A DNA stretch of 64,000 nt from a virus (Duplodnaviria > Caudoviricetes). Below the pieces are notes generated by a model. It did no database searches. It was given only the letters and a program-made list of their open reading frames with translations, and was not told the DNA's origin. Where the stretch lies: IMG/VR virus record IMGVR_UViG_3300032007_000028, one strand, 5' to 3'. This document shows positions 7,914-57,481 of the stretch, piece by piece; position 1 is the first letter of the stretch; each line of letters begins with the position of its first letter. A program made the position numbers and the translations under genes.

Positions 7914-8222
7914 TTATTTCGATTGCTTCGCTTTCTCTTGGAGTCGCTTGAACTTGTCGTATTCTGCGTCTCTGACCTTCACGTATTTCTGAGGCAGTTC
8001 GCCCTCGTCGTCGAGCCATGCAATTGGAATCGCATAGCACTTTATCTTACCGTTCGTGGTCGACTTGCATTCCCGTATGACCTTGTCCCCATCGAACGAG
8101 TAGAGCGACGTTTTGTTCCTGTCGCAACAGAAGAATAGTTCGTTTCTTCCAAACGTGACCTTACGCACGTCTACCAACACCTCTTGTGTGCTGTACTTGG
8201 GTTGCCAAATCGCTATCGCCAT
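7914..8222 (-). CDS. Hypothetical protein
   Basis: ORF; start moved to MAIAIWQ after GGGAG RBS. Confidence 0.6.
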   Translation of the reverse strand: MAIAIWQPKYSTQEVLVDVRKVTFGRNELFFCCDRNKTSLYSFDGDKVIRECKSTTNGKIKCYAIPIAWLDDEGELPQKYVKVRDAEYDKFKRLQEKAKQSK

Positions 8223-8235
8223 AAATCTCCCTTCT

Positions 8236-8472
8236 TCACAACAATTCACTGTTGCCAGAGAACGACCACATATTCAAGTCGGTGTACTCACGCTTGCTAT
8301 TCAATTCGTCGTCGGTATGTATTTCCGATTCGTCGAGATAGCGTATGTATTTGTCATCGATGGATTTTAGTTTGTACGTCGTATTGCAGTGGTCGTCAAT
8401 CATGATTCCGCAGACGACGAGGTCCTCGCCTCCGAACTTGACTTGCTCGTCGATGTCGTATTTAGTTATCAT
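8236..8472 (-). CDS. Hypothetical small SH3-like protein
   Basis: MITKYDIDEQVKF... pattern. Confidence 0.5.
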   Translation of the reverse strand: MITKYDIDEQVKFGGEDLVVCGIMIDDHCNTTYKLKSIDDKYIRYLDESEIHTDDELNSKREYTDLNMWSFSGNSELL

Positions 8473-8890
8473 CTTCTTCCGACTTCTTTCCGCATGCAAT
8501 CTGCTTCTCAAACTCAATCTGCTCGCGCTCGTCGTACCAACGACCGTACTGATTCTTCTTGTACGTAGGATGCTCTTTGAGCCAATTGTTCAGATACTCG
8601 TCGCATTCTTCGTCGTATAGATAGACGACGCTTTCGTCTGGCAATTCTAGGGCACGCATCACCACATGCTGGTCGTCGACGAACTCGAATTTCTCTTCGC
8701 CATAGGCACTGTCATAGTAATGTTCGAACCAGTCGACGACGGTGGTCGTACCGTCGGTCCACATGTGAACGTCCATGAATACGTCCTCGCTCTTCTCGTT
8801 GTACTCGACGAAATACTTCAGCAGTTTGTCGAGCAATCCGTTTTTGATGTCCTCCGCAGAGAACGACATCGAATTGTATTTTGTCTTCAT
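8462..8890 (-). CDS. Hypothetical protein
   Basis: 142 aa ORF with AAGGAG RBS and upstream TGTATAAT. Confidence 0.65.
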   Translation of the reverse strand: MKTKYNSMSFSAEDIKNGLLDKLLKYFVEYNEKSEDVFMDVHMWTDGTTTVVDWFEHYYDSAYGEEKFEFVDDQHVVMRALELPDESVVYLYDEECDEYLNNWLKEHPTYKKNQYGRWYDEREQIEFEKQIACGKKSEEDDN

Positions 8891-8960
8891 GATTGGGGCT
8901 CCTTTCTTGGTCTGCTTTATTATACAATCTCAGGTCGCTTAGACGCATACTTCGCATGAA

Positions 8961-9024
8961 TGTGAATAACTATGTGAATAAAATGTGAATAACTTTTTGA
9001 AATTCTGTCCTGCTATGTGAATAA
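8961..9024. promoter_or_regulatory. Cluster of four co-oriented DnaA boxes (TTATTCACA on minus strand)
   Basis: TGTGAATAA at 8961-8969, 8973-8981, 8984-8992, 9016-9024; matches TTATNCACA consensus. Confidence 0.75.
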
Positions 9025-9237
9025 CTTTTTCCTCATGTAAATTCTTTTCATTTTCGTTCTCATCAAAAAGTGTAGACGCCATCGAATCTTTTTCACGATT
9101 TTTCAGTAAATCTTCTCAAATTGTCTAAAAATGTCTCTTCAATTTTTGAAAATTTTCGGTGCTAAACTGTCGTAGAAGTAATAATAAATAGTCAAAATAA
9201 CTCTTTTCAAACTTCATTCAAACTCCAAAAAACACAT

Positions 9238-9293
9238 TATATACGTGTGTGTGCGTATATGTGTACGTATGTGTGTATGTGCATATGTATGTA
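9238..9293. repeat. 56-bp perfectly alternating purine/pyrimidine tract
   Basis: tatatacgtgtgtgtgcgtatatgtgtacgtatgtgtgtatgtgcatatgtatgta; imperfect continuation to about 9325. Confidence 0.85.
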
Positions 9294-9327
9294 GGTGTAC
9301 GTAGTGTACGTATACGCATAGCGTAAA

Positions 9328-9364
9328 TAAAAAGACGTTGCATGTAGAACGTCTTCTTTTTTTA
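9328..9364. terminator. Bidirectional intrinsic terminator
   Basis: AAGACGTT-gcatgtag-AACGTCTT flanked by A-run and T-run, at end of 9362..9955. Confidence 0.6.
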
Positions 9365-9955
9365 CCATATGGAGTCGTCTGTATCGTCTTCGTTGTTCCT
9401 ACGCTCGATTCTGAGTTCATAGCAATCGTCGAACAAGAAGTCAGACAGACAGCTGATTTTGTATCTGACGAGAAACCAGTCAATCGCATCGTCGAAGCCG
9501 TGGAATGAGTCGTGTTCGTTCATGAGTTCCATGTTAGCCACATCGCCAATCATGGATTCCCTAAGGCCGCATTTCGTCTTCGTGTAACGAGTGCTTATCT
9601 TGATGCCATACAAGCGTTTGTCGAGTGAGTACATCTCGAATTCGTCGTGCATTAGTCTATGGTAGAACGTATGGTACACATCGTCGATGGCAGTCGTGCA
9701 GTCCGATGCCAATCTGCTTCTTTTGAATTGGCTGTCTTCGTCTGCTGGAATCCTGTATTTGTTCTTCGCGAACGTGGCCACGAGATAGGTGATTAGGAAC
9801 GCGAATTTGTTCTTGAATCCGCGAATCGTCTCCACTTTGTCTCCGTACTTTCGCAACCGTACGTGTACGTAACCGTCTTTGCAGGCGAATTTACGAGTCC
9901 TCGTACGAAAGCCGTTCGTAGGGGTGTATTTCACACAGTAAGTAAGCTCGTTCAT
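9362..9955 (-). CDS. Hypothetical protein
   Basis: 197 aa ORF coupled to upstream gene. Confidence 0.6.
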   Translation of the reverse strand: MNELTYCVKYTPTNGFRTRTRKFACKDGYVHVRLRKYGDKVETIRGFKNKFAFLITYLVATFAKNKYRIPADEDSQFKRSRLASDCTTAIDDVYHTFYHRLMHDEFEMYSLDKRLYGIKISTRYTKTKCGLRESMIGDVANMELMNEHDSFHGFDDAIDWFLVRYKISCLSDFLFDDCYELRIERRNNEDDTDDSIW

Positions 9956-13957: not shown

Positions 13958-13994
13958 CTTCTTCTACCTCCATATATCGAAAGTATTATACAAC

Positions 13995-14514: not shown

Positions 14515-15078
14515 TTATTCAGCATCGATATATTGCCAAGACCATGGCGCTTTGTGTAAATATTTATATTCGTAATATTCCATAGGTTCACCGCATTCAG
14601 GACATAACAATTCTTTAGGCGGTTCTTTTTTAATGCTTGTGTGGAATTCGCACAACATTCGTGGTCTGTCGAAGATTTCCAAGTCTTCGATATGCCAAGC
14701 GTATAGTTTCACCTGCTCATCGCGCCTTACTGGTGCATACTTGGTAAGGTCTTCCGGTGTTAGGCATGCGTCTTTAAGAGTTTCGTAAAAGAAGCTGTCT
14801 TTAAACGCATAAGCGTACTTGCCCATATCGTCTATTCTTTTAAGCGTGAATTTTGCGACAATCATTCCGTTCCATAGTCCAGCTTTGAATGTTTTCTTGT
14901 TATGGAAGAACTCTTGTCTGATGTGCCTGTATAGGTTTGGTTTTGTCTTCGTGCAGTAGATATAGACATCAGTCGGCAACTCGCACTTGGGTGCGGTTTT
15001 CAGAACAAGAAGGGTCTTTTCCCCGTTTAGAATTTTGGCAACCGATTCGGGCTTAATCGAAATCAATATGCTTTTCAT
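14515..15078 (-). CDS. ASCH-domain protein
   Basis: ILISIKP...KILNGEKT...VYIYCTK...AWHI...APWSWQY. Confidence 0.8.
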   Translation of the reverse strand: MKSILISIKPESVAKILNGEKTLLVLKTAPKCELPTDVYIYCTKTKPNLYRHIRQEFFHNKKTFKAGLWNGMIVAKFTLKRIDDMGKYAYAFKDSFFYETLKDACLTPEDLTKYAPVRRDEQVKLYAWHIEDLEIFDRPRMLCEFHTSIKKEPPKELLCPECGEPMEYYEYKYLHKAPWSWQYIDAE

Positions 15079-19681: not shown

Positions 19682-19684
19682 AAT

Positions 19685-19868
19685 TTGATGAGCGTTCTTC
19701 GATACGAGCCGAGTAGACGGTCGTCATCCGTCAAGTGCTGACTGGGCACACCACATGTTCCTCGTCGCGTCGATACGCTCTGGGTTTGAGATTTACGACC
19801 TCGTTTTTCCTATCTTCTACGACGGGAGGCAATCTCCGTTTCGCGAAACGTTATCGTTTCGACAGCCA
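19685..19868 (-). ncRNA. Candidate ~180-nt structured RNA between tRNA-Gly and tRNA-Ala
   Basis: Stems CGAAACG/CGTTTCG, GGAG/CTCC, GAGGT/ATCTC, GACGG/CCGTC, long-range GAGCGT/ACGCTC. Confidence 0.45.
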
Positions 19869-19869
19869 C

Positions 19870-21024: not shown

Positions 21025-21100
21025 TGGTTGCAGATGACGGGGTCGAACCGTCTTCCTTCGAATTTTTGCATTCGACGAACTTCCGAAGTTCCCATCCGCA
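21025..21100 (-). ncRNA. tRNA-like RNA with 8-nt non-canonical anticodon loop, ends ACCACCA
   Basis: Acceptor TGCGGAT/ATCTGCA, D arm GAAC/GTTC, arm TCGAA[TGCAAAAA]TTCGA, T arm GACGG-TTCGACC-CCGTC. Confidence 0.7.
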
Positions 21101-21365: not shown

Positions 21366-21515
21366 ATTCAGTTCCCTCCAAGTAGTTTTTAACAGGGGTC
21401 ATTTCGGACCCCGCTTGGAGACACACCTCAGAATGATGCGAGTGCATCAGTCTCAGAGCATATTATACAACCATCGTCGACACGCAAGCGAACATTTTCG
21501 CTTACGAGCACTAAT

Positions 21516-21692: not shown

Positions 21693-23080
21693 AATTCAAT
21701 CTCCTTGAGCATGTCGATGTCAACTTTCTTCAGTTTTTTGTTCAACTCCTTTTTGTGCGAGTGGTAGAACGAGATGGCGCCAATCAGTTCGTCTTTCGAC
21801 AGTGAATCGTTGTTGATAAGCGCACGATATACCATATATTTACAGAGGTTTCTGCGTTTCTTGATGATTTTGATTGCACGTTTGAACTGTGCATTCATCA
21901 GTTTTTGATACCCTTTGTCCCTCAGGGTTCTCGTATACTCGGAACTTGAACCAAGAGACGTGGGCGAAATGCCGCCGAAATCGAGCATGCCACAGTTGAC
22001 GAGCGCCATAAACATGTCGATTGTGTTTTCCAAGTCACCACTCGAACCAGTCGACGTCGCACCAAGAAACACGCGTTCGCTTGCCATGCCACCAAGTGAG
22101 ATGCACATGTCGTCGAGGAGTTCCTGCTTCGTATAGACATTGGTGGATTCGTCTTTGGGGAAGTCATCGTCGTCGAAGAAGGGGTTTCTGTCGTAATCAC
22201 GTTCGAACTTGGTGAACCCATTGGTGTCCCCATAGCGAATGGCGGAAATCGAACCACAGTTGCCATTGAGACTCGCGCTGACGATTGCGTGACCGACTTC
22301 GTGAATGAGCACCTTAGTCGCGTTGGACTTATTCTTCCAGCGTTTACCAATCGTCTCGAAGTTCATTTCGTTGATGAGTTTTTCGAAATCCTCAACGCAG
22401 ATTTTTTCTTTGGAGTCGACGTACTCGATGAGCGCGTTGTTGATGAGCGTGCTGATGTCTGCACCAGACATGCCAGCCAACTTGACCGCAAGGCTCGTGA
22501 CGTTCAACTCGTCGAACGTCTTGAAGCCCTTGATGTAGTATTTGATGATTTCCTCACGCGAATGCAAATCGGGCAAGTCGACCTTGATTTTCTTGTCGAA
22601 GCGACCACTTCTCGTCAACGACGACGGAATGTCTTGGTAGTTGTTCGTCGACGCGATAATCATCACACCGCCATGAGACTCGTACCCATCCAGTTTCGTG
22701 AGCAAGAACTTAAGAACCTGTTTGGACAAGTCGCTTTCGAAGTGCGAAGACGTTACGAGTTCCGCGATTTCGTCGATGTACACAATCGAAGGGGTCGACT
22801 TTTCAGCGTCTGCGAACGTTTTTTGAAGACCTTTGAGAACCTGCGTCTCGTCGTCACCCGATTCGAAATAGTGAAAGGGGATTCCACACTCTTTTGACAA
22901 AGCTGACGCCATGAGCGTTTTGCCACATCCAGGCGGGCCCTGCAGAATGAGGCCTCGTGGCAAACGAATGCCCCTCTTCTCATACTTGTCATAGTTCTTG
23001 AACAGATTGATTAGTTTGCGCAACTCGTCTTTTTCGGCTTCGTAGCCTGCGATTGAGTTCATGCCAATTTTTCTTTTCAT
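21689..23080 (-). CDS. FtsH-like AAA+ / M41 zinc metalloprotease lacking membrane anchor
   Basis: GPPGCGKT, IYIDE, SLTRSGRFD, HEVGH, LGGMASE, GSSGD. Confidence 0.9.
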   Translation of the reverse strand: MKRKIGMNSIAGYEAEKDELRKLINLFKNYDKYEKRGIRLPRGLILQGPPGCGKTLMASALSKECGIPFHYFESGDDETQVLKGLQKTFADAEKSTPSIVYIDEIAELVTSSHFESDLSKQVLKFLLTKLDGYESHGGVMIIASTNNYQDIPSSLTRSGRFDKKIKVDLPDLHSREEIIKYYIKGFKTFDELNVTSLAVKLAGMSGADISTLINNALIEYVDSKEKICVEDFEKLINEMNFETIGKRWKNKSNATKVLIHEVGHAIVSASLNGNCGSISAIRYGDTNGFTKFERDYDRNPFFDDDDFPKDESTNVYTKQELLDDMCISLGGMASERVFLGATSTGSSGDLENTIDMFMALVNCGMLDFGGISPTSLGSSSEYTRTLRDKGYQKLMNAQFKRAIKIIKKRRNLCKYMVYRALINNDSLSKDELIGAISFYHSHKKELNKKLKKVDIDMLKEIEL

Positions 23081-23088
23081 ATCGATGC

Positions 23089-23664
23089 TTATCTCCCTTG
23101 TTTAGTTATCTCGATGTATCTGTCGTTCATGTACTGCGACCATCCGCTGTACGATTCGTCTCTGCTGTCGATGACGAACTTACCCGTCTCCTCGTGGGCC
23201 TTGCTACGTCTGGCGCAATCGAAGAACATATCTCTCGTCGTGTTGTTGACAAGCAACGTGTTTATGTTGCATTCGTCGATGCGTTTCGTCTTTCTATAGG
23301 CCACGCGAATCGTGTGCTTCTCTGGGTCTCGAAGCAATACGCTCGTCCCAGGCACTTCGTCGAAGTTCGCTTTGTACTTGACGTTCGTGTCTATGAAGCC
23401 CTTGACGGTGTTCGCGTGATGCTTGTGCGCTATCGCCTTGAACGTTTTGTCGGCATCGTCGTTCGCAACGTAGAACACATTGATTGAACCGTCTTCCTTC
23501 ACGATGCATTTCGAAGAAAAAAGCAAAGACAGCACTTCGTCGGAATTCATATTCAGGAACGAATACGACTCCACTTCGCACACATCTTCGCTGTTTGTGA
23601 TTTTGATGATGTTTCCTTTTACCCGTCTGACAATCATTTGTGATTCCTCGATGACATTATACAA
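23089..23664 (-). CDS. Hypothetical protein
   Basis: 191 aa ORF; likely start at MIVRR. Confidence 0.55.
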   Translation of the reverse strand: MYNVIEESQMIVRRVKGNIIKITNSEDVCEVESYSFLNMNSDEVLSLLFSSKCIVKEDGSINVFYVANDDADKTFKAIAHKHHANTVKGFIDTNVKYKANFDEVPGTSVLLRDPEKHTIRVAYRKTKRIDECNINTLLVNNTTRDMFFDCARRSKAHEETGKFVIDSRDESYSGWSQYMNDRYIEITKQGR

Positions 23665-27695: not shown

Positions 27696-27933
27696 AAACG
27701 TTGTCCTTCCATTTCAGATTCTTCTTTCGTATCGCTCTCATCACTTTCTCAAGGCTTCTCGTCATTATATACTCGCGTTGCTTCTGCATCGTCAACGCGT
27801 ATTGCTCTTCCGAGAAGTTGAGTTTCTTTCTGACCAAATCGAACAACCTTCGCGGGTGTTCCTGCAGGTCGTGCAATTCCGCTTCGATATTATACAATGC
27901 AAGAGAAAATTCGTTATCGTGGTTCGAAATCAT
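27625..27933 (-). CDS. Hypothetical protein
   Basis: 102 aa ORF, overlaps both neighbours; start uncertain. Confidence 0.35.
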   Translation of the reverse strand: MISNHDNEFSLALYNIEAELHDLQEHPRRLFDLVRKKLNFSEEQYALTMQKQREYIMTRSLEKVMRAIRKKNLKWKDNVYGNDEQTNLDADDNQSEESGQDF

Positions 27934-29148: not shown

Positions 29149-31029
29149 TCATCTTACCTCACTTATGCCGTTTTCGTTTTTCACAATCGTTATTTCGCTG
29201 TCTGCCGGAATCTGCAACTCATCACTGTGATGCGATACGATAAAGACGCTGTCCACATCGCTCAACTCATTGACGATGAACGACATCACCCTGTCGCAAC
29301 TGAGCGAATCGAGAGCGTCGGTTATTTCGTCAAGAACCAATATGTTCGACGAGAATCCACACTGCTTGGACATCATGTCTCGAATCGCGAACTGCACGAC
29401 CAAGTCCAGTCTCTGCTTTTCGCCGCCACTCAGATTGCCGTAGTCTTTTCCTCTGTAGACGATGTCCAGGTCGTTGCCATTCAACTCAAACGACACATCG
29501 TCTGTATTGAATATCTTAGAGCAGTAGTTCTTCGCTCGTGCGTCTATATAGTCTATTATATTCTGCAGTAGATAGCCTCTGAAGTCACGTTTTGCGAACG
29601 TGCTCATTTTGTTTACGACGGACAATCTTTCGTCCAGTTCGTTCGCTTTGCCTTCATGAACTTCAATATCTTTCTTCAGATTCGAGGTCTCTGTCTCGAT
29701 TCCGTTCAATTCGTTGCGCAGTTCTTCTAGTCTCGTTTTCCTCGTGTTAAGTTCCGTCTTAAGTTTCGTATACTCATTCGACTTAGCGGAAACCTCGTTC
29801 TGTAGAATCGAGTTTGTCCTATTCGTCAATGCGGATGTTTCCTTCTTCAGGGAATCGACTCTGCCCTTTGCGTTTTCTATGTTCTTGTCAAAGTCTTCTG
29901 ATATTCGTCTCAATACGTCTGCGTACCCTTCGTTGTCGTCGGCTATATCGTATTCAATCTCTTCTATTCTCTGTCTTATTTCCGCCAGTTCGTTCTTTTG
30001 AGCGTCACAACTCGGCTTGACGACTCCGACCAATTTTTGACCGCACGTGGGACAAACGTCTCTTATGCCCTCGATGTGCTCAATCTCATGAGTGAGGGAT
30101 GACGCTCTCGCGTCGAGGGACGATTTGCGACCAATCAATTCGCTCTGCGTTTCGCTGTGCTGAGTCATCACTTTCGACAGCGCGTTCGATTTATCTTGCG
30201 ACAGCGTAGACAACGACGCGATTGCCGAGTCGAGGTTATCGTTGCTCGACTTAAGCTCATCGTTCAAGGACTTCACAAGCGATTTCGCGTTTTCGATGTC
30301 TTCTTCGAGAGTCTTCAATCTCGTCTCATCGTCCACCATCCCTTCAAGACGGACGATGTCGCTATTCACTTTCGCCCGTGATTCTTCGTATACACTTAGT
30401 TTCGACTTCAAAGACGCAATCGTCTTGTCGTTTTCGTTCCTCGCATTCGAGAGAACGTCAAGTCTGTCCGATATGCGTCTCTTTATGTCTTCTATCATGA
30501 AGTCGGACTTCGAAAGATGCTCAAGCACCTCTTTTCTACCACTCGGCGTATTCGACGTGAACTTTTGGGGCAGTCCCTGTCCAAGCAACACGACGCTACC
30601 AATAAGTTCTTTCGTCACGTCTGGCAAAAGCTGAGACAGCATCGTCTGCGACTCCCTTATGCCTTTGCCACCAACGTCTTCCCCATCCACGATTATCTTG
30701 AGATTCGTGTGCAATACGGAATCGTCATGGCTTCTCGTCAGCACGAACGACTTCTCGTCGGCTTCGAATTCGAGACTGACCCAACAACCGTCGTTGTATG
30801 CGATGTTCGCAGTCGAAGAACCCTTCAGACCACTTAGCGTTTCACCTGTGAGAACGTAGCTTATCGCGTTCCATATTGACGACTTTCCAGAACCATTGCT
30901 CTTGGCCGCGTCGCTTGGGTCCAAATTGATTCCCTTGACCAAACAAAAGCCTCTATCGCACAGTTCTATCTCCGCGTCCGCGAACGACATAAAATGATGC
31001 AATTTAATCTTCTTGAATACAATCTTCAT
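29149..31029 (-). CDS. sbcC: SbcC/Rad50-like ATPase
   Basis: SNGSGKSS, coiled coil, CPTC zinc hook, LSGGE, LVLDE, VSH. Confidence 0.92.
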   Translation of the reverse strand: MKIVFKKIKLHHFMSFADAEIELCDRGFCLVKGINLDPSDAAKSNGSGKSSIWNAISYVLTGETLSGLKGSSTANIAYNDGCWVSLEFEADEKSFVLTRSHDDSVLHTNLKIIVDGEDVGGKGIRESQTMLSQLLPDVTKELIGSVVLLGQGLPQKFTSNTPSGRKEVLEHLSKSDFMIEDIKRRISDRLDVLSNARNENDKTIASLKSKLSVYEESRAKVNSDIVRLEGMVDDETRLKTLEEDIENAKSLVKSLNDELKSSNDNLDSAIASLSTLSQDKSNALSKVMTQHSETQSELIGRKSSLDARASSLTHEIEHIEGIRDVCPTCGQKLVGVVKPSCDAQKNELAEIRQRIEEIEYDIADDNEGYADVLRRISEDFDKNIENAKGRVDSLKKETSALTNRTNSILQNEVSAKSNEYTKLKTELNTRKTRLEELRNELNGIETETSNLKKDIEVHEGKANELDERLSVVNKMSTFAKRDFRGYLLQNIIDYIDARAKNYCSKIFNTDDVSFELNGNDLDIVYRGKDYGNLSGGEKQRLDLVVQFAIRDMMSKQCGFSSNILVLDEITDALDSLSCDRVMSFIVNELSDVDSVFIVSHHSDELQIPADSEITIVKNENGISEVR

Positions 31030-32048
31030 CGTCTGCAAACCTCTCCCAACTCAGACATGACTATATCCGTTTTGCCTAGTCTGTCTATCACAAACTTGTC
31101 GAACTCACCGAGATGACCGTCTACTCCATAGTCGAATTTGACGTCTTCTGTTGGAGAACTTTTCGTCGAAACTATTGTCATCTTATACGTCACGACGTTA
31201 TGTCTCGCGAGGATTTCATTGACTCTATCGACATACTTTTCGTCGCATCTCAAAGACAAGACTGCATTCTGCTTTATGTCGTCCAATTTTCTCAAAGACG
31301 TTTCGTCGACGATGTCCAACTTATAGAAATTGAACGCGTACGGATTGTCGAAGAACGACGTTTCAAGCGTGTCTGTGCCGATGAGCATCGTCTGATGACC
31401 GTATCTGAACGCGTCTTCGGAAAAGTTTTGACCAGTGAGATTGCCAAGGTTTATCGCGAACAATCTTTTGCCATCGAAGAACTTCGTCTGATTATGAAGA
31501 TGCCCGTTCACATAGAGAGACGTATTGCCCTTTATTTCGTCTAACGAATATCCAAATTTGGACTCATACGCACCGTAACGTATTCCGCTGATGTCGTTAT
31601 GCGAGAAGACGATTCTCTTTTTGTCGTTGGGCAAAATTTCCGACAGTGGTCTTCTCGTGTCTTCCGTGAAATAGGGAATGAAAGCTATGTCGTCTTCTAT
31701 CTTAATCTTGTCTATGACTTCAAAGCCCTCTTTGCGAAGGGCGTTGGTGGAACTATACTGCAGGTCTATCATCGACGATTCGTGATTGCCTACAATGAAC
31801 GCATGGCGAATCGACTTAGCCCAATTTATCTTCTGAAGAACGGAAATCTCCTCTGAGTTGATATCACATCTATCGAAGAAGTCTCCAAGATACACAATCA
31901 AATCTGCATTTGTTTCCAGGGCTTTATTCTCAGCCCAATCTATCGAAGACAAAAGATTTGACAATCTCGTCGAACAATCTTTGTTTCTTGTTCTCAATAT
32001 CGACGAATACGTCGACCAATGTACGTCACCTACTACGAAAATCTTCAT
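31026..32048 (-). CDS. sbcD: SbcD/Mre11-like nuclease
   Basis: GDVH, GDFFD, GNHE, SHN, NGHLH; adjacent to SbcC. Confidence 0.88.
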   Translation of the reverse strand: MKIFVVGDVHWSTYSSILRTRNKDCSTRLSNLLSSIDWAENKALETNADLIVYLGDFFDRCDINSEEISVLQKINWAKSIRHAFIVGNHESSMIDLQYSSTNALRKEGFEVIDKIKIEDDIAFIPYFTEDTRRPLSEILPNDKKRIVFSHNDISGIRYGAYESKFGYSLDEIKGNTSLYVNGHLHNQTKFFDGKRLFAINLGNLTGQNFSEDAFRYGHQTMLIGTDTLETSFFDNPYAFNFYKLDIVDETSLRKLDDIKQNAVLSLRCDEKYVDRVNEILARHNVVTYKMTIVSTKSSPTEDVKFDYGVDGHLGEFDKFVIDRLGKTDIVMSELGEVCRR

Positions 32049-32080
32049 ACGAGAATATTATACAATGCACATAAGAAAAA

Positions 32081-34255: not shown

Positions 34256-35295
34256 AATTGCGCGTCGCACAGACTAGCGATTTCAATCGTCGCCGTCATG
34301 TGCTGATTAGAATCGTTTTTCATTTTGTATTTGATGTCGTTGACCTTCGTCACCAGAGACGAGAACACCTTGCATGAATTCTCAATGCCTGTTGCGTACT
34401 TGACGCATCGCGAATCGTTTTCGTGTTTTGGGTTGAGTACGGTCGTAGGTAGTTTCGTATAGGAAATATCCCCAAACAGACAATACTTATTCAAGTCTAG
34501 AAGAAAGCCAATATACTGGTCGATGAACGTCTTCGTTTCGATTCCGTCCATGTGCAGTCTTTCCATAGTCGCTATGACAGAACGTCTATCACCGTCGATG
34601 ATTGCGTTGGTCACGTCGAACATCGCGTCGTATGACACGTTGCCCAACACCTTGAGAACGTTGTTCATAGACAGGTCGACGCTGAAACTGGCGCACTTCT
34701 CTAGCATGGATATCGCGTCTCTGACACCACCATTGGCAAGCTTTGCAATATAGTCGCAAGCGTCTTCGCAATTTAAGAAGCCTTCGCACTTCGAGATGTA
34801 AATCAATCTGTCCCTTACCTGCTCAAACGGAACGCGAGTCAGCGTGAATTTCATCAAACGATTCATAATCGTCGCGGGAATCTTCTGAGGGTCCGTGGTG
34901 CAGAAAATGAATATCGTATACTTGGGTGGCTCCTCTAGGCACTTCAGAAACGCGTTCCATGCGGCCGTTGTGAGCATATGGGCTTCGTCTACGATAATCG
35001 TCTTGTATTCAGAGTCGAGACTTCTTGAGCTTGCTTCGAATATGAGAGAACGCACGTTGTCAACACCGTTGTTCGACGCACCGTCTACTTCGATTGGACT
35101 GCCTTTGCCTTTGTTTATGCAAGATGAGAAGATTCTCGCAAGAGTGGTTTTGCCATCGCCTGAGGGACCACAAAACAAATATGCGTTCTTAAACGTGTTC
35201 GTTTCAAGTTGATGCTTGAGAATCCGAATCGTGTACTCCTGAGAGAGAACGCTTTCGAAATTCTGCGGTCGATATTTTACTGCTAGTGATGGCAT
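34252..35295 (-). CDS. dnaX: DNA Pol III gamma/tau (DnaX)-like clamp-loader ATPase
   Basis: KYRPQNF, GPSGDGKTT, DGASNNGVD, DEAHML, GGVRDAISMLE. Confidence 0.92.
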   Translation of the reverse strand: MPSLAVKYRPQNFESVLSQEYTIRILKHQLETNTFKNAYLFCGPSGDGKTTLARIFSSCINKGKGSPIEVDGASNNGVDNVRSLIFEASSRSLDSEYKTIIVDEAHMLTTAAWNAFLKCLEEPPKYTIFIFCTTDPQKIPATIMNRLMKFTLTRVPFEQVRDRLIYISKCEGFLNCEDACDYIAKLANGGVRDAISMLEKCASFSVDLSMNNVLKVLGNVSYDAMFDVTNAIIDGDRRSVIATMERLHMDGIETKTFIDQYIGFLLDLNKYCLFGDISYTKLPTTVLNPKHENDSRCVKYATGIENSCKVFSSLVTKVNDIKYKMKNDSNQHMTATIEIASLCDAQL

Positions 35296-35305
35296 CTGTT
35301 GTCTC

Positions 35306-35656
35306 CTACAATTCTTTTTCTACGCTGACCATGTTTTCTGGCAGCCAGCCTTCCCACATTGCTTTCGTCTCGTCTTCAGCGACGCTTACGACGTGAATCA
35401 TCGTACCAAGCTTACGGTCGACTTCGACTCGCATTCTGTCGCACTTTGGGACCGTACCATGATTCCAGTTTCTGTACAGAACGTCATTCGACTTCGGGTC
35501 GAGCAACGAGCGGTCTATATTTATTATATAATAGCGACCTATCGAAATCGACAGATTCGTCTTCTTTGGTATGAAATACGTTTGCGTATCCGCGTCATAA
35601 TTCGCGAGAGAGGCCACGCTTACCTTGAGAAGTTGCTTTTCCGCTTGCTTACTCAT
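35306..35656 (-). CDS. Hypothetical protein
   Basis: 116 aa coupled ORF. Confidence 0.6.
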   Translation of the reverse strand: MSKQAEKQLLKVSVASLANYDADTQTYFIPKKTNLSISIGRYYIINIDRSLLDPKSNDVLYRNWNHGTVPKCDRMRVEVDRKLGTMIHVVSVAEDETKAMWEGWLPENMVSVEKEL

Positions 35657-36533
35657 CTCTTTCGTCCACGACGTAGGTGGCTATGATGTCTGCCGCATGC
35701 AATAGCGAAACAAGACCATACTTGCTCATAATCGCTGTAATCTCCTCTACCCCATATTTATCTGAATACGAGTACTGATTGACGAGTGCTACAGTTTCTT
35801 CTTTCGTAAGAGGGATATACGCGCTGATTGCATAGTAAGCGGAGAAGCCCTTCGAGCCAATGACGTCCCTTGTGGACGAGTCTACGACTTTATACACTTT
35901 CTTGGACACCCAATCGAAGTTGCCCAACTCGTCGTGCTTCTTCCCAGCGTCGCTGTAGACCTTCTCGTTTTTGATTCCCTCTTCGTAAATCTGCGCTCTG
36001 CACACATCGTGTAACAATGCGACGATTGCGATTGACACATCATCGTATTTGTGTTGAGATGGAACGGGCAGATTGGCGATGAATCTGCGACATGCGATTC
36101 TATATGCGGCCGCTTCTGCGTCCGTATGGATTCCGATGACGCTCATCAACTCGTCCTCAAGTTCTTCTTCGTTCATGCCAACGACGGAGATGCAGTGTTG
36201 CATAACGGCATTGAATCCCATACGCCCTTCATTCACGTCGTCGAGGAGAACGCTTTGATATCGAGAGACGTTCTCCAACTGAGCGTCGTCTTTGAACACG
36301 TTGGTCATCACGTAACCATCACCGAAGTTTTTGTTGAGGTTGAGCATGACGTCGTATACGTTGAGCGAGTGCTGTAATAAGCCACCTTCGAACGAGCAGT
36401 GATACTGCGTAGATGCTGGTGCTTTGAAGAAGCCGATAGTCTCTAAGTAGTTCAATAATCCATCGATGTCGCAATCGTTTCTTTTGTCTGCGATTCCATA
36501 AAGAAGTTCTTTGAATCTGTCTTTGTTGCTCAT
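35649..36533 (-). CDS. HD-domain protein with ~90-aa internal insertion
   Basis: APASTQYH...GGLLQHSLNV ... LLHD ... LHAAD; start corrected to MSNKD. Confidence 0.75.
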   Translation of the reverse strand: MSNKDRFKELLYGIADKRNDCDIDGLLNYLETIGFFKAPASTQYHCSFEGGLLQHSLNVYDVMLNLNKNFGDGYVMTNVFKDDAQLENVSRYQSVLLDDVNEGRMGFNAVMQHCISVVGMNEEELEDELMSVIGIHTDAEAAAYRIACRRFIANLPVPSQHKYDDVSIAIVALLHDVCRAQIYEEGIKNEKVYSDAGKKHDELGNFDWVSKKVYKVVDSSTRDVIGSKGFSAYYAISAYIPLTKEETVALVNQYSYSDKYGVEEITAIMSKYGLVSLLHAADIIATYVVDERDE

Positions 36534-36623
36534 GTAGTCTCCTTTTCTATAAAAGAATAGCTCCATGATTACCGAGGAGCGACGGCACATGTTCAAGTGC
36601 ATGTGACACTTTAAATTATACAA

Positions 36624-36700
36624 TGGCACCCCCGTGCCGACTCGAACGGCAGACCCACAGCTTAGAAGGCTGTTGCTCTATCCAACTGAGCTACGGGGGT
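36624..36700 (-). tRNA. tRNA-Arg(UCU)
   Basis: Cloverleaf, loop CT-TCT-AA, CCA. Confidence 0.93.
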
Positions 36701-36746
36701 ATATATGAGAATATGCAAGTAGTCAAATTCTCATCATTTTATCGAA

Positions 36747-36823
36747 TGGTCCGCCCTCGGCGACTTGAACGCCGAACCTTGCGATTATAAGTCGCACGCT
36801 CTGACCAATTGAGCTAAGGGCGG
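36747..36823 (-). tRNA. tRNA-Ile(UAU)
   Basis: Cloverleaf, loop CT-TAT-AA, A73, CCA. Confidence 0.9.
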
Positions 36824-36895
36824 ATGTCTGAGATGATGTCGTTCATCTCAGAAGACGCGTCTTTTCTCGTGGCTTAGACGTAACCACATAACCAA

Positions 36896-36951
36896 TGAGC
36901 CGACCAACTAAGGAGATAATTTACAGGAGGCAACCATGAATCGTCGGCTCA
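36896..36951 (-). ncRNA. Promoter-proximal hairpin with anti-SD/anti-AUG loop
   Basis: 9-bp stem TGAGCCGAC/GTCGGCTCA, loop GATTCATGGTTGCCTCCTGTAAATTATCTCCTTAGTTG; TATAAT at 36957-36962. Confidence 0.55.
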
Positions 36952-36967
36952 GATGTATTATACAACG

Positions 36968-37438
36968 TTATGCGTCTTTCTGCTGACTTTCGAGAATATG
37001 TTGCTTCATCTTTTCGGTATTCTCTTCGGTGGTGATGACGACGTACGGAGTCTTCTTCGCTACCACGAATTGGGAAATCGCTTCGTTGAGTTGCTGATTG
37101 CTCTTAAGTTCTTTCTTGAGGGCGTTCTTATTCAACTCTTCTTTAACTCTGAGAAGGGTGTCGTAGTGAAGGCTCTTGATGAGAGCGATGACGTCTGCAT
37201 CGGAAGTATACGATACGGAATCGCGCTCGAATTTGGTCGCGACCATGCCACCGTAAGAGATTGCGTCGGAACCGTCTTCGACGATGTACTCAAGGGCGTT
37301 CGCTTCGATTTCGTCCATCTGGGCCTGAAGCTCTTTGATTTGTTCGTCGAGTTTCTTCTTCTGTTCTTCGAGAGAAGTCTTTTCTTCTTTAAGGGATTTG
37401 TAGGCGAGTAGTGATTGGTTGAATTCTTGATTTGTCAT
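36968..37438 (-). CDS. Gam/Gp157-like coiled-coil protein
   Basis: N-terminal coiled coil, 'RVKEELNKNALKKEL' motif; sigmaA promoter at 37462-37489. Confidence 0.55.
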   Translation of the reverse strand: MTNQEFNQSLLAYKSLKEEKTSLEEQKKKLDEQIKELQAQMDEIEANALEYIVEDGSDAISYGGMVATKFERDSVSYTSDADVIALIKSLHYDTLLRVKEELNKNALKKELKSNQQLNEAISQFVVAKKTPYVVITTEENTEKMKQHILESQQKDA

Positions 37439-37461
37439 AAGTTTTAATCTCCACACTAAAC

Positions 37462-37489
37462 ATTATAGTGGCTATAGACGATATGTCAA
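37462..37489 (-). promoter_or_regulatory. sigmaA-type promoter TTGACA-16-TATAAT
   Basis: Direct read of minus strand. Confidence 0.7.
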
Positions 37490-37842
37490 GCGTTTTCTTC
37501 AATTAATTTTTCACAGAGGAACCTGAATAGTTTCTCATCGATTACGAAATAGTTCTTCTGGTCTGGACCAAACTCAAACGCAATCGCTGTATTGGACATT
37601 CGCACGGAGAACGCGTCTTCTTTGTTCTTTTCTATCCACGCTTTCTTGATTGAGAACGAATTCTTCTCCGTCATCGGCGTCTTGCATTCGACCAACATGG
37701 ACGCTGATTCTAGAACGACGTCGCCAGCAGAGAAGTCGGCCGCGCCAGAATTCGCCATTCTACGTCCGCCAATCAGTCTCGCAACGTAACTTTCCTGTGC
37801 GGTAGAGAACGTTCTTGTGGCTTCAGGGTTCTTCTTAGGCAT
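37486..37842 (-). CDS. PD-(D/E)xK nuclease / Holliday-junction resolvase-like
   Basis: QE..VA, NSGA...GDV, LVECKT, SFSIKK. Confidence 0.75.
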   Translation of the reverse strand: MPKKNPEATRTFSTAQESYVARLIGGRRMANSGAADFSAGDVVLESASMLVECKTPMTEKNSFSIKKAWIEKNKEDAFSVRMSNTAIAFEFGPDQKNYFVIDEKLFRFLCEKLIEENA

Positions 37843-38179
37843 CCGGACCACCGTCCTTCTTCGGCTTGATTAGATTCTTCAGTTCATCTTCAAGACCGTC
37901 TTTGACAGAAGCCTCCTGCTTTGCGATGAGTTCTCTGTTCGCGACGATACCCAACGCTTCGTTGGGAGTGACCCAAACTGGAATCAACTCACTCAGTTGA
38001 GGGTCCGCTGACGCAAACTCCATCACGAATAGGTTTTTGTCGACGATGGAACGATACGACGTGACCATATAATTGTTTCTGAGAAAGAATGCAGTCTGAT
38101 TGGCAATCTCGACCAACATGTCTTCGAATGTTTCGTAATCACCTCTTTTGAAGATGATTTTGCTAGTCTCTTCTTGCAT
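37835..38179 (-). CDS. Hypothetical protein
   Basis: Start corrected to MQEETS after GAGGAG RBS. Confidence 0.6.
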   Translation of the reverse strand: MQEETSKIIFKRGDYETFEDMLVEIANQTAFFLRNNYMVTSYRSIVDKNLFVMEFASADPQLSELIPVWVTPNEALGIVANRELIAKQEASVKDGLEDELKNLIKPKKDGGPDA

Positions 38180-38180
38180 G

Positions 38181-39353
38181 TTATTTCTCCTCTTCTGCGA
38201 AATCGACTTCGAACGTTTCGGCAACGTTCACATTTAGCATCTTTTCGAACGACACGACGTTCGGGTCGTCTTTCTTGGACAAAGTTTCGTATACTTTATC
38301 ATATAGTTTATGCCACACGTCCAGATGCGTCTCGAAGTACGGCTTCAGATTCTTCTTTCCGCGAATCTTCACGGGAGCGCCATCTGCGTCAAGCATCGGT
38401 TCTCCCGTCTCGGGATTGAGCACGATATACGAACCTGCGGCGGGGTTGTCGATGTAGCCGAAGTACGTCGCGACGTCGATGGTGTCTTGCAGAATGTCGA
38501 CGCCCTTCGTGAAGGAGATGCAAGTTCTGCCCAACTTTCTGTCCCATTTGCACACTTTCGTTTTGAGAACGGCAACTTCCATGATGTAGCCTGCGGGAGA
38601 CTCAGCGTTAGACGACAATTCGTTACCATCTTCGTCGAAGAACTTGCCCTTCTTGACTTTGAGACGAACAGAGCATCCATGCTTCCACCCACGACCACCT
38701 GATGTGACTTCGGCCGGGCCATACGGGTTTAAACCATCGCGCAACTGCTGAATGCCGATTAGAGTGCAATCGTATTTGATGAGAAGACTTGTGATGCGCT
38801 TGACGAAGTCGCCCAACGTATACGCGATACCGCCCATGGACTTCTTGTCGAGGCTCTCGTCATGGACCTGCTGACTGACGAGCATGTTGAGGGAGTCGAT
38901 TACGACCAGACCGACCTCACCAGTTTTGACGATATTGATTACGTCAGTGAGAATGTCTTCAGCAGACTGGTCTTCTGGACGATAGCACAATGTCTTCACA
39001 CGCTCATCGTTCATGTCATAGCCAGCTTTTAAAGCCCAAGAAGGTTCGACACTGCATTCGAGGTCTACGTAAAGAATGCTTCGAGGATTATCTGGGTTCT
39101 TCTTCACTTCCTTCTTCTGATAGGATGCGCAGATAAGAAACGCGAGCGTCGTTTTGCCTGAGCCTTCTGCACCACTCAACTCAATGATTTTGCGTTCTGG
39201 CAGAGAGTTGTACAGACAAAAGTCAAGTCCGGGTGAACCCATCGACAAAGTACCGTATGCCGTTAAATCGTCGACACCGACCGTAATCGCGTTTTTCGTT
39301 TGTTTCTTTTGAATGTTCTTAAGTATTTCAGTAAGCGTAAGTTCGTTAGCCAT
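38181..39353 (-). CDS. recA: RecA/UvsX recombinase
   Basis: GAEGSGKTT, VVIDS, IQQLRD, TSGGRGWKH. Confidence 0.92.
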   Translation of the reverse strand: MANELTLTEILKNIQKKQTKNAITVGVDDLTAYGTLSMGSPGLDFCLYNSLPERKIIELSGAEGSGKTTLAFLICASYQKKEVKKNPDNPRSILYVDLECSVEPSWALKAGYDMNDERVKTLCYRPEDQSAEDILTDVINIVKTGEVGLVVIDSLNMLVSQQVHDESLDKKSMGGIAYTLGDFVKRITSLLIKYDCTLIGIQQLRDGLNPYGPAEVTSGGRGWKHGCSVRLKVKKGKFFDEDGNELSSNAESPAGYIMEVAVLKTKVCKWDRKLGRTCISFTKGVDILQDTIDVATYFGYIDNPAAGSYIVLNPETGEPMLDADGAPVKIRGKKNLKPYFETHLDVWHKLYDKVYETLSKKDDPNVVSFEKMLNVNVAETFEVDFAEEEK

Positions 39354-42659: not shown

Positions 42660-43511
42660 TCAACGTCTGAATCTGTCGCTGATTATTTTCGGTACGGCGG
42701 TTTCCCAATCGATGAGGTGGTGTATTCTCTTATGCGTCGACCCCATTTCTGAAATTTTGACGCAACTTGGACATAGCATTACGCTATAGAACGATTTGAC
42801 GTATGTGCCATATTGCAGATAAGCGGCCGTTATACCGCCCTCGTTCGCCTGTGTCTGAGGCTGGTCGAGACACATATCCCTCGTCGTGAAGAACAAATAC
42901 CCTCTCTTACCATAATCGATGTATGCGTTCACGTCGTCGTTGAATCTACCGAGGAATTGAAAGGGTCTGTCGACTCTGCAGAAAAACGAATTCATCGCCT
43001 TTCTCGTTATCTGTTGTCTCCAAACTGTACTTCCCAAACCACCGAGAAAATCGCCAGTCTGGGCGAATGCGACGCACATCGCGCCACTGGAATCGAGAAA
43101 TTCAAGATAAGGCCCAATCAATTCATCGAATTGCGTGACATATCTCGTCTTCATGGAGCTGTTTTCCTCGAATCTTTGTCTAAAACACATATAGTCGTCT
43201 TCCAATTCAAGAAAATACTGAAGACCAAGTTTACTAGCTATACGATGAAATACGTTTCTCGCAAAAGTTGGCACACCACGACCGTCGAAATTGTCCATGA
43301 TATCGAACGTCTTCCCAGCTTCGACTTTATCGAATACGATAATATGCTCTGCACCGAAATTCTCGACGTATTTAGGGGCCTGTTCGTCTTCGTTGTCTAT
43401 CACTATATACCATTTACCCGAATAATTTACTTTCTTCAACGTGTCAACGGTACGTACATTGTCTGCGCGACCATGTGACAGAATCAATATAGCGAAATCG
43501 TCTCTTACCAT
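42660..43511 (-). CDS. GT-A glycosyltransferase (TET-associated/GREB1-like type)
   Basis: ILSHGRA, ARN, LEDDY, RKAMNSFF, NDDV, QTQANEGG, YVKSFYSV. Confidence 0.75.
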   Translation of the reverse strand: MVRDDFAILILSHGRADNVRTVDTLKKVNYSGKWYIVIDNEDEQAPKYVENFGAEHIIVFDKVEAGKTFDIMDNFDGRGVPTFARNVFHRIASKLGLQYFLELEDDYMCFRQRFEENSSMKTRYVTQFDELIGPYLEFLDSSGAMCVAFAQTGDFLGGLGSTVWRQQITRKAMNSFFCRVDRPFQFLGRFNDDVNAYIDYGKRGYLFFTTRDMCLDQPQTQANEGGITAAYLQYGTYVKSFYSVMLCPSCVKISEMGSTHKRIHHLIDWETAVPKIISDRFRR

Positions 43512-50352: not shown

Positions 50353-50397
50353 GATTATCCTCTTTTCTGCTTTGTTGCGCTTTATATTATACAAGGC

Positions 50398-57150: not shown

Positions 57151-57208
57151 TTCTCGATTATATTATACAAAGAAGACGCGCTGTCGAGCACGTCTTTTTC
57201 GACACTAT

Positions 57209-57481
57209 CTATGCGTCGAAGTCTATCTCTTTCTTGTCGAGCATCTTGTTGAACTTGTCGAGAACGTTTCTGCTGTTCGGACTACCGAACACATAGCCAT
57301 CTTCCCCGACTGTTTCTTTGTCACGAGAGATGATGGTGGTGCGCTTGCATCTCATATAGCACTTTTTGCTTTGAAGGACGTGAATCAGCTTCTTCTCGCA
57401 CTCTTCAATCGATTTCCCTGGCCAGAGATGGATTGTACCGTCATTCGAGTAGAATACGGCGTAGTAGACTTTGTCTTCCAT
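57209..57481 (-). CDS. Hypothetical protein
   Basis: 90 aa, AGGAGG RBS, sigmaA promoter. Confidence 0.65.
   Translation of the reverse strand: MEDKVYYAVFYSNDGTIHLWPGKSIEECEKKLIHVLQSKKCYMRCKRTTIISRDKETVGEDGYVFGSPNSRNVLDKFNKMLDKKEIDFDA

Follow-up and report, generated by a model that had tools for sequence, protein, structure and literature searches.

A stem-loop displaying Shine-Dalgarno complements at the head of a phage tRNA operon, and its possible origin from a tRNA-Ile gene

Introduction

Why should the first hairpin of a phage tRNA transcript hold, in a wide loop, the complements of two ribosome-binding sites? The question arises from a stretch of 64,000 nucleotides of viral DNA (Duplodnaviria; Caudoviricetes), hereafter the window, which is the reverse strand of the 148,987-bp IMG/VR virus record IMGVR_UViG_3300032007_000028, about 99% complete. 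The original prediction, made from the sequence, saw in this hairpin a trans-acting RNA that silences the translation of host or phage mRNAs.

Several known systems bear on such a proposal. In phage T4 the RegB protein destroys GGAG sites, and in phages P1 and P7 the C4 antisense RNA is an RNase P-processed repressor that masks a ribosome-binding site. The 3' external transcribed spacer of glyW-cysT-leuZ is a functional sRNA sponge, and the tRNA region of T4 gives rise to two co-transcribed stable RNAs of unknown role, species 1 and species 2, which are cut from the tRNA precursor. Additionally, mobile elements leave partial copies of tRNA genes behind them, as att-site duplications and tRNA-linked repeats.

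Genomic context

Essentially all genes are carried on the minus strand of the window, and the neighbourhood of the hairpin is a replication and recombination module with a UvsX-like recombinase, a Holliday-junction resolvase, a Gam-like protein and a clamp loader. The Gam-like gene (36968-37441, minus; PHROG 2205, E = 5e-5, with Pfam PF07352 below its cut-off) has a perfect sigma-70-type promoter, located by a promoter scan at 37489-37462 on the minus strand. Its stop, at 36968, lies upstream of a promoter-like word, TTGTATAAT (36957-36965, minus), which was recognized from repeat counts and heads the tRNA unit. A scan found no terminator between the Gam-like gene and the first hairpin of that unit (hairpin 1), so read-through RNA would carry the hairpin too.

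The unit contains a tRNA-Ile with anticodon UAU (36823-36747, minus; Rfam tRNA model 68.7 bits) and a tRNA-Arg with anticodon UCU (36700-36624, minus; 63.3 bits), both called by ARAGORN. With these two genes downstream on the same strand, the hairpin likely stands at the 5' end of a tRNA transcript, as originally proposed. Directly 3' of tRNA-Arg is a second TTGTATAAT (36615-36623, minus), heading the structured 5' untranslated region of the next gene (35649-36533, minus; ATG at 36533). That untranslated region (36534-36614, minus) contains a hairpin and an element of about 27 nt that forms a small stem closed by GCUCC/GGAGC. In the closest related locus (L004, 9540-9620) the element recurs almost unchanged despite proteins that are only 46% identical, and it is a candidate for a conserved cis-regulatory RNA.

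The promoter word and the start of the transcript

Ten copies of TTGTATAAT lie in the window, where 0.38 would be expected, and all of them are on the minus strand (8919-8927, 13985-13993, 21462-21470, 23656-23664, 27889-27897, 32057-32065, 36615-36623, 36957-36965, 50386-50394 and 57162-57170). The 149-kb genome has 13 copies, 13 of 13 on the coding strand and none on the opposite one. This repetition is clearly non-random, and since every copy follows the coding strand we read the word as a phage promoter motif. Usually it is found a short distance ahead of a ribosome-binding site, and most copies lack a -35 box; genes of related phages (L001/L005, L020 and L026) are preceded by it too. It is probably a phage-specific promoter class, distinct from sigma-70-type promoters such as that of the Gam-like gene.

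One copy allows the start of transcription to be estimated. On the minus strand, the word at 32057-32065 ends 8 nt before the ATG (32048) of a 340-aa gene (31026-32048), which places transcription starts 7-9 nt downstream of the word. That gene begins without a Shine-Dalgarno sequence, and its mRNA is a candidate leaderless message. At the tRNA unit, where the -10-like word ends at 36957 and the stem of hairpin 1 begins at 36951, transcription would start at about 36950-36948, at the foot of the stem. Three AAGACGC half-sites lie near copies of TTGTATAAT, with about one expected; the enrichment is not clear, and the idea that they form an operator beside the promoter words was dropped.

Hairpin 1 and the leader

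The hairpin itself is as first described. On the minus strand, 5 nt beyond the promoter word, a perfect 9-bp stem (36951-36943 with 36904-36896) closes a 38-nt loop (36942-36905), the whole spanning 36896-36951, with a predicted folding energy of -18.1 kcal/mol (z = -1.9). The loop does contain the two complements that had been reported. Word 1 (36925-36938, minus) reads CAT, 5 nt, CCTCCT, the complement of a Shine-Dalgarno sequence, spacer and ATG (on the plus strand AGGAGG at 36925-36930, 5 nt, and ATG at 36936-36938). Word 2 (36909-36915, minus) reads CTCCTTA and matches the usual 3' tail of 16S rRNA over 7 nt, with AAGGAG on the plus strand at 36910-36915. A minus-strand scan found no intrinsic terminator at hairpin 1, whose loop is 38 nt long and which is not followed by a T-run.

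Perfect 9-bp inverted repeats with loops of at most 60 nt number 77 in the genome and about 43 in shuffled sequence; long-loop intergenic cases, hairpin 1 included, number four against about two by our estimate. Taken alone, the stem is weak evidence against chance. The content of the loop is unusual against the genome's own usage. In 149 kb, CCTCCT occurs three times and CTCCTT nine times, and three of only seven intergenic CCTCC/CTCCT positions genome-wide fall in this one loop. We estimate the chance of a two-word loop at p ~0.015 from the genome's intergenic rate and at only p ~0.05 from the base composition of tRNA-associated non-coding stretches, which are free of the constraints on mRNA leaders. 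Both words are predicted to be largely single-stranded, with mean unpaired probabilities of 0.85 for CCUCCU in word 1 and 0.71 for CUCCUUA in word 2.

Hairpin 1 heads a leader of about 127 nt, composed of three hairpins, before tRNA-Ile(UAU) and tRNA-Arg(UCU). Hairpin 2 (36869-36887, minus) folds as a 6-bp stem with a 7-nt loop, and hairpin 3 (36827-36852, minus), with a stem of 9-10 bp and a 6-nt loop, ends 3 nt ahead of the first base of tRNA-Ile. The three-hairpin leader folds at -38.6 kcal/mol (z = -2.2). Between hairpins 2 and 3 is a perfect 12-nt palindrome (36852-36863) whose 10-nt core has no second copy in the 149-kb genome; the palindrome may serve as a protein-binding site, although its half-sites are not clearly enriched near promoter words. 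The leader (144 nt) has a single place in the 149-kb genome, and blastn-short returned elsewhere only the 9-11-nt promoter word. A scan from 36951 to the tRNAs found no terminator-like site, so a 3' end of the leader would have to come from RNase P, and hairpin 3 would form the 3' terminus after that cleavage. Searches with Rfam 15 (cmscan, E up to 10; 35500-38500 and 36815-36970) returned only the tRNAs and chance-level hits.

Two ways in which the loop might pair in cis were rejected. Pairing with the 3' acceptor strand of tRNA-Ile does not agree with tRNA alleles that vary between strains while the leader stays constant, and pairing with the ribosome-binding site of the next gene comprises the 7-nt Shine-Dalgarno core only.

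Reading from the plus strand

Read from the other strand, the same letters could be the ribosome-binding site and start of a small peptide, or a sponge RNA that captures CsrA or ribosomes through a GGA loop, the latter having been offered as an alternative in the original prediction. AGGAGG, 5 nt and ATG make a textbook start, and another intergenic anti-Shine-Dalgarno word, at genome position 20450 outside the window, is indeed the true ribosome-binding site of an opposite-strand gene. At hairpin 1, however, no plus-strand promoter-like site was found in 36400-37500; the 13 promoter words are without exception on the opposite strand, as are nearly all genes. The open reading frame shares sequence with the promoter and with the end of the Gam-like gene; it has 16 aa in the window against 39 aa in a diverged strain, L068, with unrelated tails. 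We consider a plus-strand element highly improbable.

Complementarity to mRNAs

If the minus strand is transcribed, the loop might pair in trans. The leader, freed by RNase P as an RNA of about 127 nt capped by a hairpin at both ends, would use its open loop to bind GGAG-type Shine-Dalgarno sequences, and word 1 also AUG, in host or phage mRNAs and so lower their translation, as an RNA counterpart of RegB. With both words predicted to be single-stranded and the leader closed by hairpins at either end, which would favour stability, an exapted role of this kind is possible. Elsewhere the transcribed strand strongly avoids anti-Shine-Dalgarno words, and predicted duplexes of the loop with real ribosome-binding sites reach -19 to -23 kcal/mol.

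The ribosome-binding sites of 156 predicted phage gene starts were searched for the longest contiguous complement to the loop, and the matches were compared with those of 300 control loops in which the two hexamers were kept and the other 26 positions shuffled. The matches that had been singled out exist, with 10 nt at the start at 43511, 9 nt at 15078 and 8 nt at 23080, and sequence context showed AGGAGGCA in the ribosome-binding site of the start at 57481. Their specificity did not stand. The best control match averaged 10.1 nt and 66% of controls reached at least 10 nt, while the counts of matches of at least 8 and at least 9 nt were equalled or exceeded in 22% and 33% of controls. A loop needs only these two hexamers to do as well, and this one is generically Shine-Dalgarno-complementary, with no particular phage mRNA singled out. 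A genome-wide, energy-based duplex scan was dominated by G-tracts and was not specific to ribosome-binding sites.

These results weigh against a regulator acting in trans, as does its lack of discrimination, since about 100 of the 156 phage genes have a Shine-Dalgarno match of at least 5 nt and a generic RNA would also strike the phage's own genes. No terminator was found for the leader, nothing in Rfam matched it and the related phages searched yielded no homologue, and the AU-rich centre of the loop looks like a site for RNase E or Y. The claim of a silencing RNA therefore survives in part: the exposed words are present in a conserved leader, but the targets are at chance level, no homologue was found outside the species and the words have a simpler source in a tRNA-Ile gene (see below). 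We regard an anti-Shine-Dalgarno regulator as unlikely, though one to be taken seriously. The broader form, in which a stable RNA of about 127 nt made from tRNA-gene debris would mask GGAG sites and start codons of many mRNAs as a global damper analogous to RegB, seems to us rather improbable.

RsaE/RoxS-type sRNAs of Firmicutes pair with Shine-Dalgarno sequences through C-rich unpaired motifs (for the RoxS network, see PMC8216469). The leader resembles them in its pyrimidine-rich words, which are complementary to GGAG-type sites and predicted to be exposed in a loop. It differs in that these words are CCUCCU and CUCCUUA rather than CCCC or UCCC, in that it has a promoter word but no terminator of its own and no sequence or structure match in Rfam 15, and in the lack of target enrichment. 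With C4 the leader would share maturation of a phage RNA by RNase P, and it too has a loop complementary to ribosome-binding regions. C4, however, has long and specific complementarity to one target in its own operon, whereas among the 156 phage ribosome-binding regions no complementarity of the leader beyond the generic Shine-Dalgarno core exceeded chance, and the leader has no Rfam match.

Similarity to tRNA-Ile

Another source for the words emerged when a CCTCC..CTCCT pattern was counted in five related records. The pattern was not above its reversed-pattern control, but it revealed the start of the tRNA-Ile of a related locus (L011). The minus-strand 10-mer at 36930-36921, which begins with the CCTCCT of word 1, is identical to positions 1-10 of that tRNA and matches a tRNA fragment in L004 at 9 of 10 positions. 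In a gapped local alignment, positions 1-21 of the L004 fragment fall on the loop and the 3' arm of the stem with 18 matches, 3 mismatches and one 8-nt insertion.

In a test designed post hoc, hairpin 1 was compared with the first 25 nt of 18 tRNAs, using dinucleotide shuffles. All five homologous tRNA-Ile alleles scored above chance (p = 0.001, 0.001, 0.029, 0.033 and 0.044), the best being the L004 fragment (z = 5.2) and L011 (z = 4.6), and the 13 other tRNAs, including the resident tRNA-Arg and an unrelated tRNA-Ile of L004, all gave p > 0.07. When scored against the L004 and L011 alleles, hairpin 1 falls within the best 0.03-0.09% of all genomic 60-nt windows. It resembles the tRNA-Ile alleles of relatives more than the resident allele. 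The acceptor strand of this tRNA-Ile family reads CCUCC(U/C) and is followed by U8-A9; by this comparison the anti-Shine-Dalgarno word would arise from it by accident.

ARAGORN, the Rfam tRNA model and an nhmmer profile of three tRNA-Ile alleles, run over 36824-36956, all failed to detect the similarity. With profile methods silent, the argument for this origin depends on a gapped local alignment that was spotted post hoc. We consider it probable, somewhat better than an even bet though short of proven, that the words are the remains of the 5' end of an older tRNA-Ile gene. Such an origin would account for the words without a regulatory purpose and counts against a trans-acting role.

A short 5' piece of a tRNA ahead of an intact tRNA gene of the same identity is reminiscent of the partial copies left by mobile elements. 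The present piece differs from these in that only about 21 nt are left, with an 8-nt interruption and closer likeness to the alleles of relatives, and no integrase is found nearby.

Related loci

No relatives of the Gam-like protein were found in IMG/VR viral contigs or JGI metagenome contigs, and in the protein database it belongs to only one cluster at an identity of at least 90%. A search with the recombinase gave 24 related loci, the closest of which is L004 (recombinase 82% and Gam 33% identity). After its Gam-like gene L004 has neither TTGTATAAT nor hairpin 1. In their place are, in order, a hairpin like hairpin 2 (read by eye, its stem has one two-sided and one one-sided change), a tRNA-Ile-like 5' fragment that tRNA models do not call, a 302-aa reading frame of an endonuclease family (8481-9389; PHROG 15137, E = 2e-12) and an intact tRNA-Ile(UAU). 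The intact gene is unrelated and has an 18-nt insert, assigned to the variable region by the Rfam alignment. The segment 8400-9490 of L004 looks like a nuclease-plus-replacement-tRNA cassette that disrupted a resident tRNA gene.

The covariance search advised in the original prediction gave nothing: with a model of the leader, neither 27 related loci nor 5 whole records of related phages yielded a copy. Pattern searches at the DNA level, exact or degenerate, for the loop and for hairpin 2 likewise gave 0 matches in IMG/VR and the JGI metagenomes. By these searches the leader appears confined to one phage species.

Strain comparison

Additional haplotypes were obtained from contigs retrieved by exact protein look-ups, giving three distinct full leader haplotypes (the window, L028 and L068) and one partial (L070). 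L029 is identical to the window. In L028 a patch of about 12 substitutions covers the surroundings of hairpin 3 and tRNA-Ile; the acceptor-stem changes are compensatory, all three substitutions near hairpin 3 fall outside its stem, and hairpin 1 is identical. L068 and L069 represent a second lineage, about 92% identical to the window overall; in properly framed genes, four-fold degenerate sites differ by about 30%. Their Gam-like gene is another allele, with about 50% nucleotide identity, and their inter-tRNA spacer is deleted. In these two and in L070 the tRNA-Ile and tRNA-Arg alleles are entirely different. The exchanged genes lie at 36624-36823 and 36968-37441 in the window and within 1677-2500 in L068. 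The junctions lie 2 nt before the promoter word, right after the hairpin 3 stem and in the last bases of tRNA-Arg; the Gam-like gene and the tRNA pair are cassette swaps with sharp junctions.

Between these flanks, the 142-nt segment from TTGTATAAT to hairpin 3 differs between the lineages by one substitution and one inserted base (98.6% identity), a level that only 2.2% of 142-nt windows in the 5.5-kb alignment equal. Both leader changes in L068/L069 fall in the AU-rich spacer between the two anti-Shine-Dalgarno words. Word 2 is unchanged in all haplotypes seen, hairpin 2 is invariant in all, and no stem covariation occurs among the three full and one partial haplotypes. The hairpin of the original prediction is near-identical across two diverged lineages and absent in the nearest other species.

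Such near-perfect conservation calls for selection, acting on RNA or DNA, or else for exchange in the very recent past. It is the one observation that keeps the anti-Shine-Dalgarno regulator in contention, since a leader so well preserved at about 30% neutral divergence has changed only between its two words. Exchange would suit a different explanation, in which the segment is an inert scar or a DNA-level linker for recombination with no function as RNA, near-identical through recent exchange or as a homology arm for the shuffling of cassettes. Both of its flanks have been swapped with junctions at module edges, and a second near-identical patch between the lineages, at about 35,250-35,430, itself shows recent exchange. 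Short contigs from four other samples end +8, +26 or +49 after the Gam-like stop or begin in the loop; ends at hairpin 1 fit polymorphism at this spot, as expected of a polymorphic junction. Such breaks had also suggested an invertible 38-bp segment, an idea that was dropped because neither 9-bp arms nor a 38-bp segment is large enough for known invertases and loop polymorphism in L068 and L070 accounts for the breaks. An endonuclease gene occupies the same place in L004, and one study reports nuclease genes as markers of phage exchange boundaries, where nuclease-linked replacement seems general (PMC10448857).

The scar or linker would be comparable to the promoter-early stem-loop (PeSL) cassettes of T4-type phages (Arbiol et al. 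2010, PMC2839356), small modules of promoter plus stem-loop between genes that are inserted, deleted or replaced among close relatives. In L068/L069 the Gam-like allele and tRNA cassette flanking the leader are indeed replaced at module edges. PeSLs are multi-copy, however, whereas the leader hairpin is single-copy with only the 9-nt promoter word repeated, and their stem-loops are terminators, whereas the leader hairpin lies downstream of its promoter and has no U-tract. Conversion tracts homogenizing only 142 nt would also have to end at non-homologous flanks on both sides, and two perfect hairpins of at least 9 bp within 133 nt are unlikely to arise without selection (about 0.03 each by our estimate). 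We doubt, on balance, that the segment lacks a function as RNA.

A leader that may be built partly from a tRNA remnant

The reading that we favour, with a little less than even confidence, is that hairpin 1 is the 5'-terminal stem-loop of the leader of a promoter-driven tRNA operon, built partly from a tRNA remnant and protective in cis. It draws on the observed anatomy, promoter-word statistics, tRNA-Ile 5' similarity, cassette swaps and strain conservation, and adds to them a start site, RNase P release and a protective role, which we infer.

The place may once have held a promoter, a short leader and a tRNA-Ile. A nuclease-driven replacement of the cassette, of a kind documented for the T4 tRNA region (PMC2330249), would have left the first 21 nt or so of the old tRNA-Ile before the new cassette, namely its acceptor strand, U8-A9 and D-arm, broken by the 8-nt insertion. 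This stump and a complementary stretch of the old leader would then have formed the 5'-terminal hairpin of a longer leader. RNA synthesis would start at the foot of the stem, the leader would fold into its three hairpins, and RNase P would cut it off 3 nt after hairpin 3. The paired 5' end and the 3'-terminal hairpin may act in cis to shield the precursor from end-dependent RNases and to keep the leader folded apart from the tRNAs. The complements of ribosome-binding sites in the loop would be leftovers of tRNA-Ile rather than a purpose-built antisense device. Replacement of an old tRNA-Ile cassette at a recombination hot spot would account for the words, their place, the arrangement in L004 and the swaps.

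Difficulties attend this origin in a tRNA remnant. A mere scar should drift, yet the 142 nt are 98.6% identical, and a protective 5' hairpin needs its stem and not its loop. Additionally, a perfect 9-bp stem has a chance of about 0.03 within the leader by our estimate, and would otherwise call for later selection.

Comparison with known tRNA regions

The tRNA cluster resembles the T4 tRNA region as a mobile, nuclease-associated cassette whose precursor may yield extra small RNAs. It differs in that no nuclease gene adjoins the tRNA cluster of the window (one is present in L004) and in having no sequence similarity to the T4 RNAs. In T4, the SegB homing endonuclease drives inheritance of the tRNA region (PMC2330249; see also PMC13096335).

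Like the transcribed spacers of bacterial tRNA operons, the leader would be a non-coding RNA co-transcribed with tRNAs and freed by tRNA-processing nucleases, and those spacers are a precedent for by-products that act in trans. The spacer of glyW-cysT-leuZ is a 3' one, whereas the phage element is a phage-encoded 5' leader with no known partner RNA. Leaders and transcribed spacers of bacterial tRNA operons are among the topics of two other reports (PMC9514646, PMC7213987).

If the leader is only a processed by-product, the tRNA locus of this phage is an exchangeable cassette whose earlier occupants leave recognizable 5' stumps. It would also show that an anti-Shine-Dalgarno appearance can stem simply from a tRNA acceptor strand, which calls for caution in scans that flag CCUCC loops as regulators. 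If instead the leader acts on ribosome-binding sites, phages would be able to turn tRNA-gene debris into a general damper of translation delivered by tRNA processing. To our knowledge, no example of such a damper has been described.

Other features of the genome and its relatives

Other tRNA-associated sequences of unusual form were seen in the course of this work. The 188-nt spacer between tRNA-Gly and tRNA-Ala (19682-19869, minus) has hairpins and another CCTCCCGT, the same 8-mer that starts the L004 tRNA-Ile fragment, and might represent either another tRNA stump or a structured spacer RNA. At 21025-21100 (minus), adjoining tRNA-Thr, ARAGORN predicts a tRNA whose anticodon has four bases (caaa) and to which no amino acid is assigned; it would be either an odd tRNA-like RNA or a frameshift-suppressor-type tRNA. 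In L011 a non-coding stretch of about 650 nt (7930-8590) has two tRNA-like 3' ends, each with T-arm and CCA, that are not called by ARAGORN, and L020 and L026 have a similar non-coding stretch upstream of a phosphohydrolase-like gene. These are possibly split or permuted RNAs akin to tRNA or tmRNA. Beyond the window, the two ends of the virus record (genome positions about 11-45 and 148856-148890) share a G-tract-containing sequence, which points to terminal repeats or to an assembly closed into a circle.
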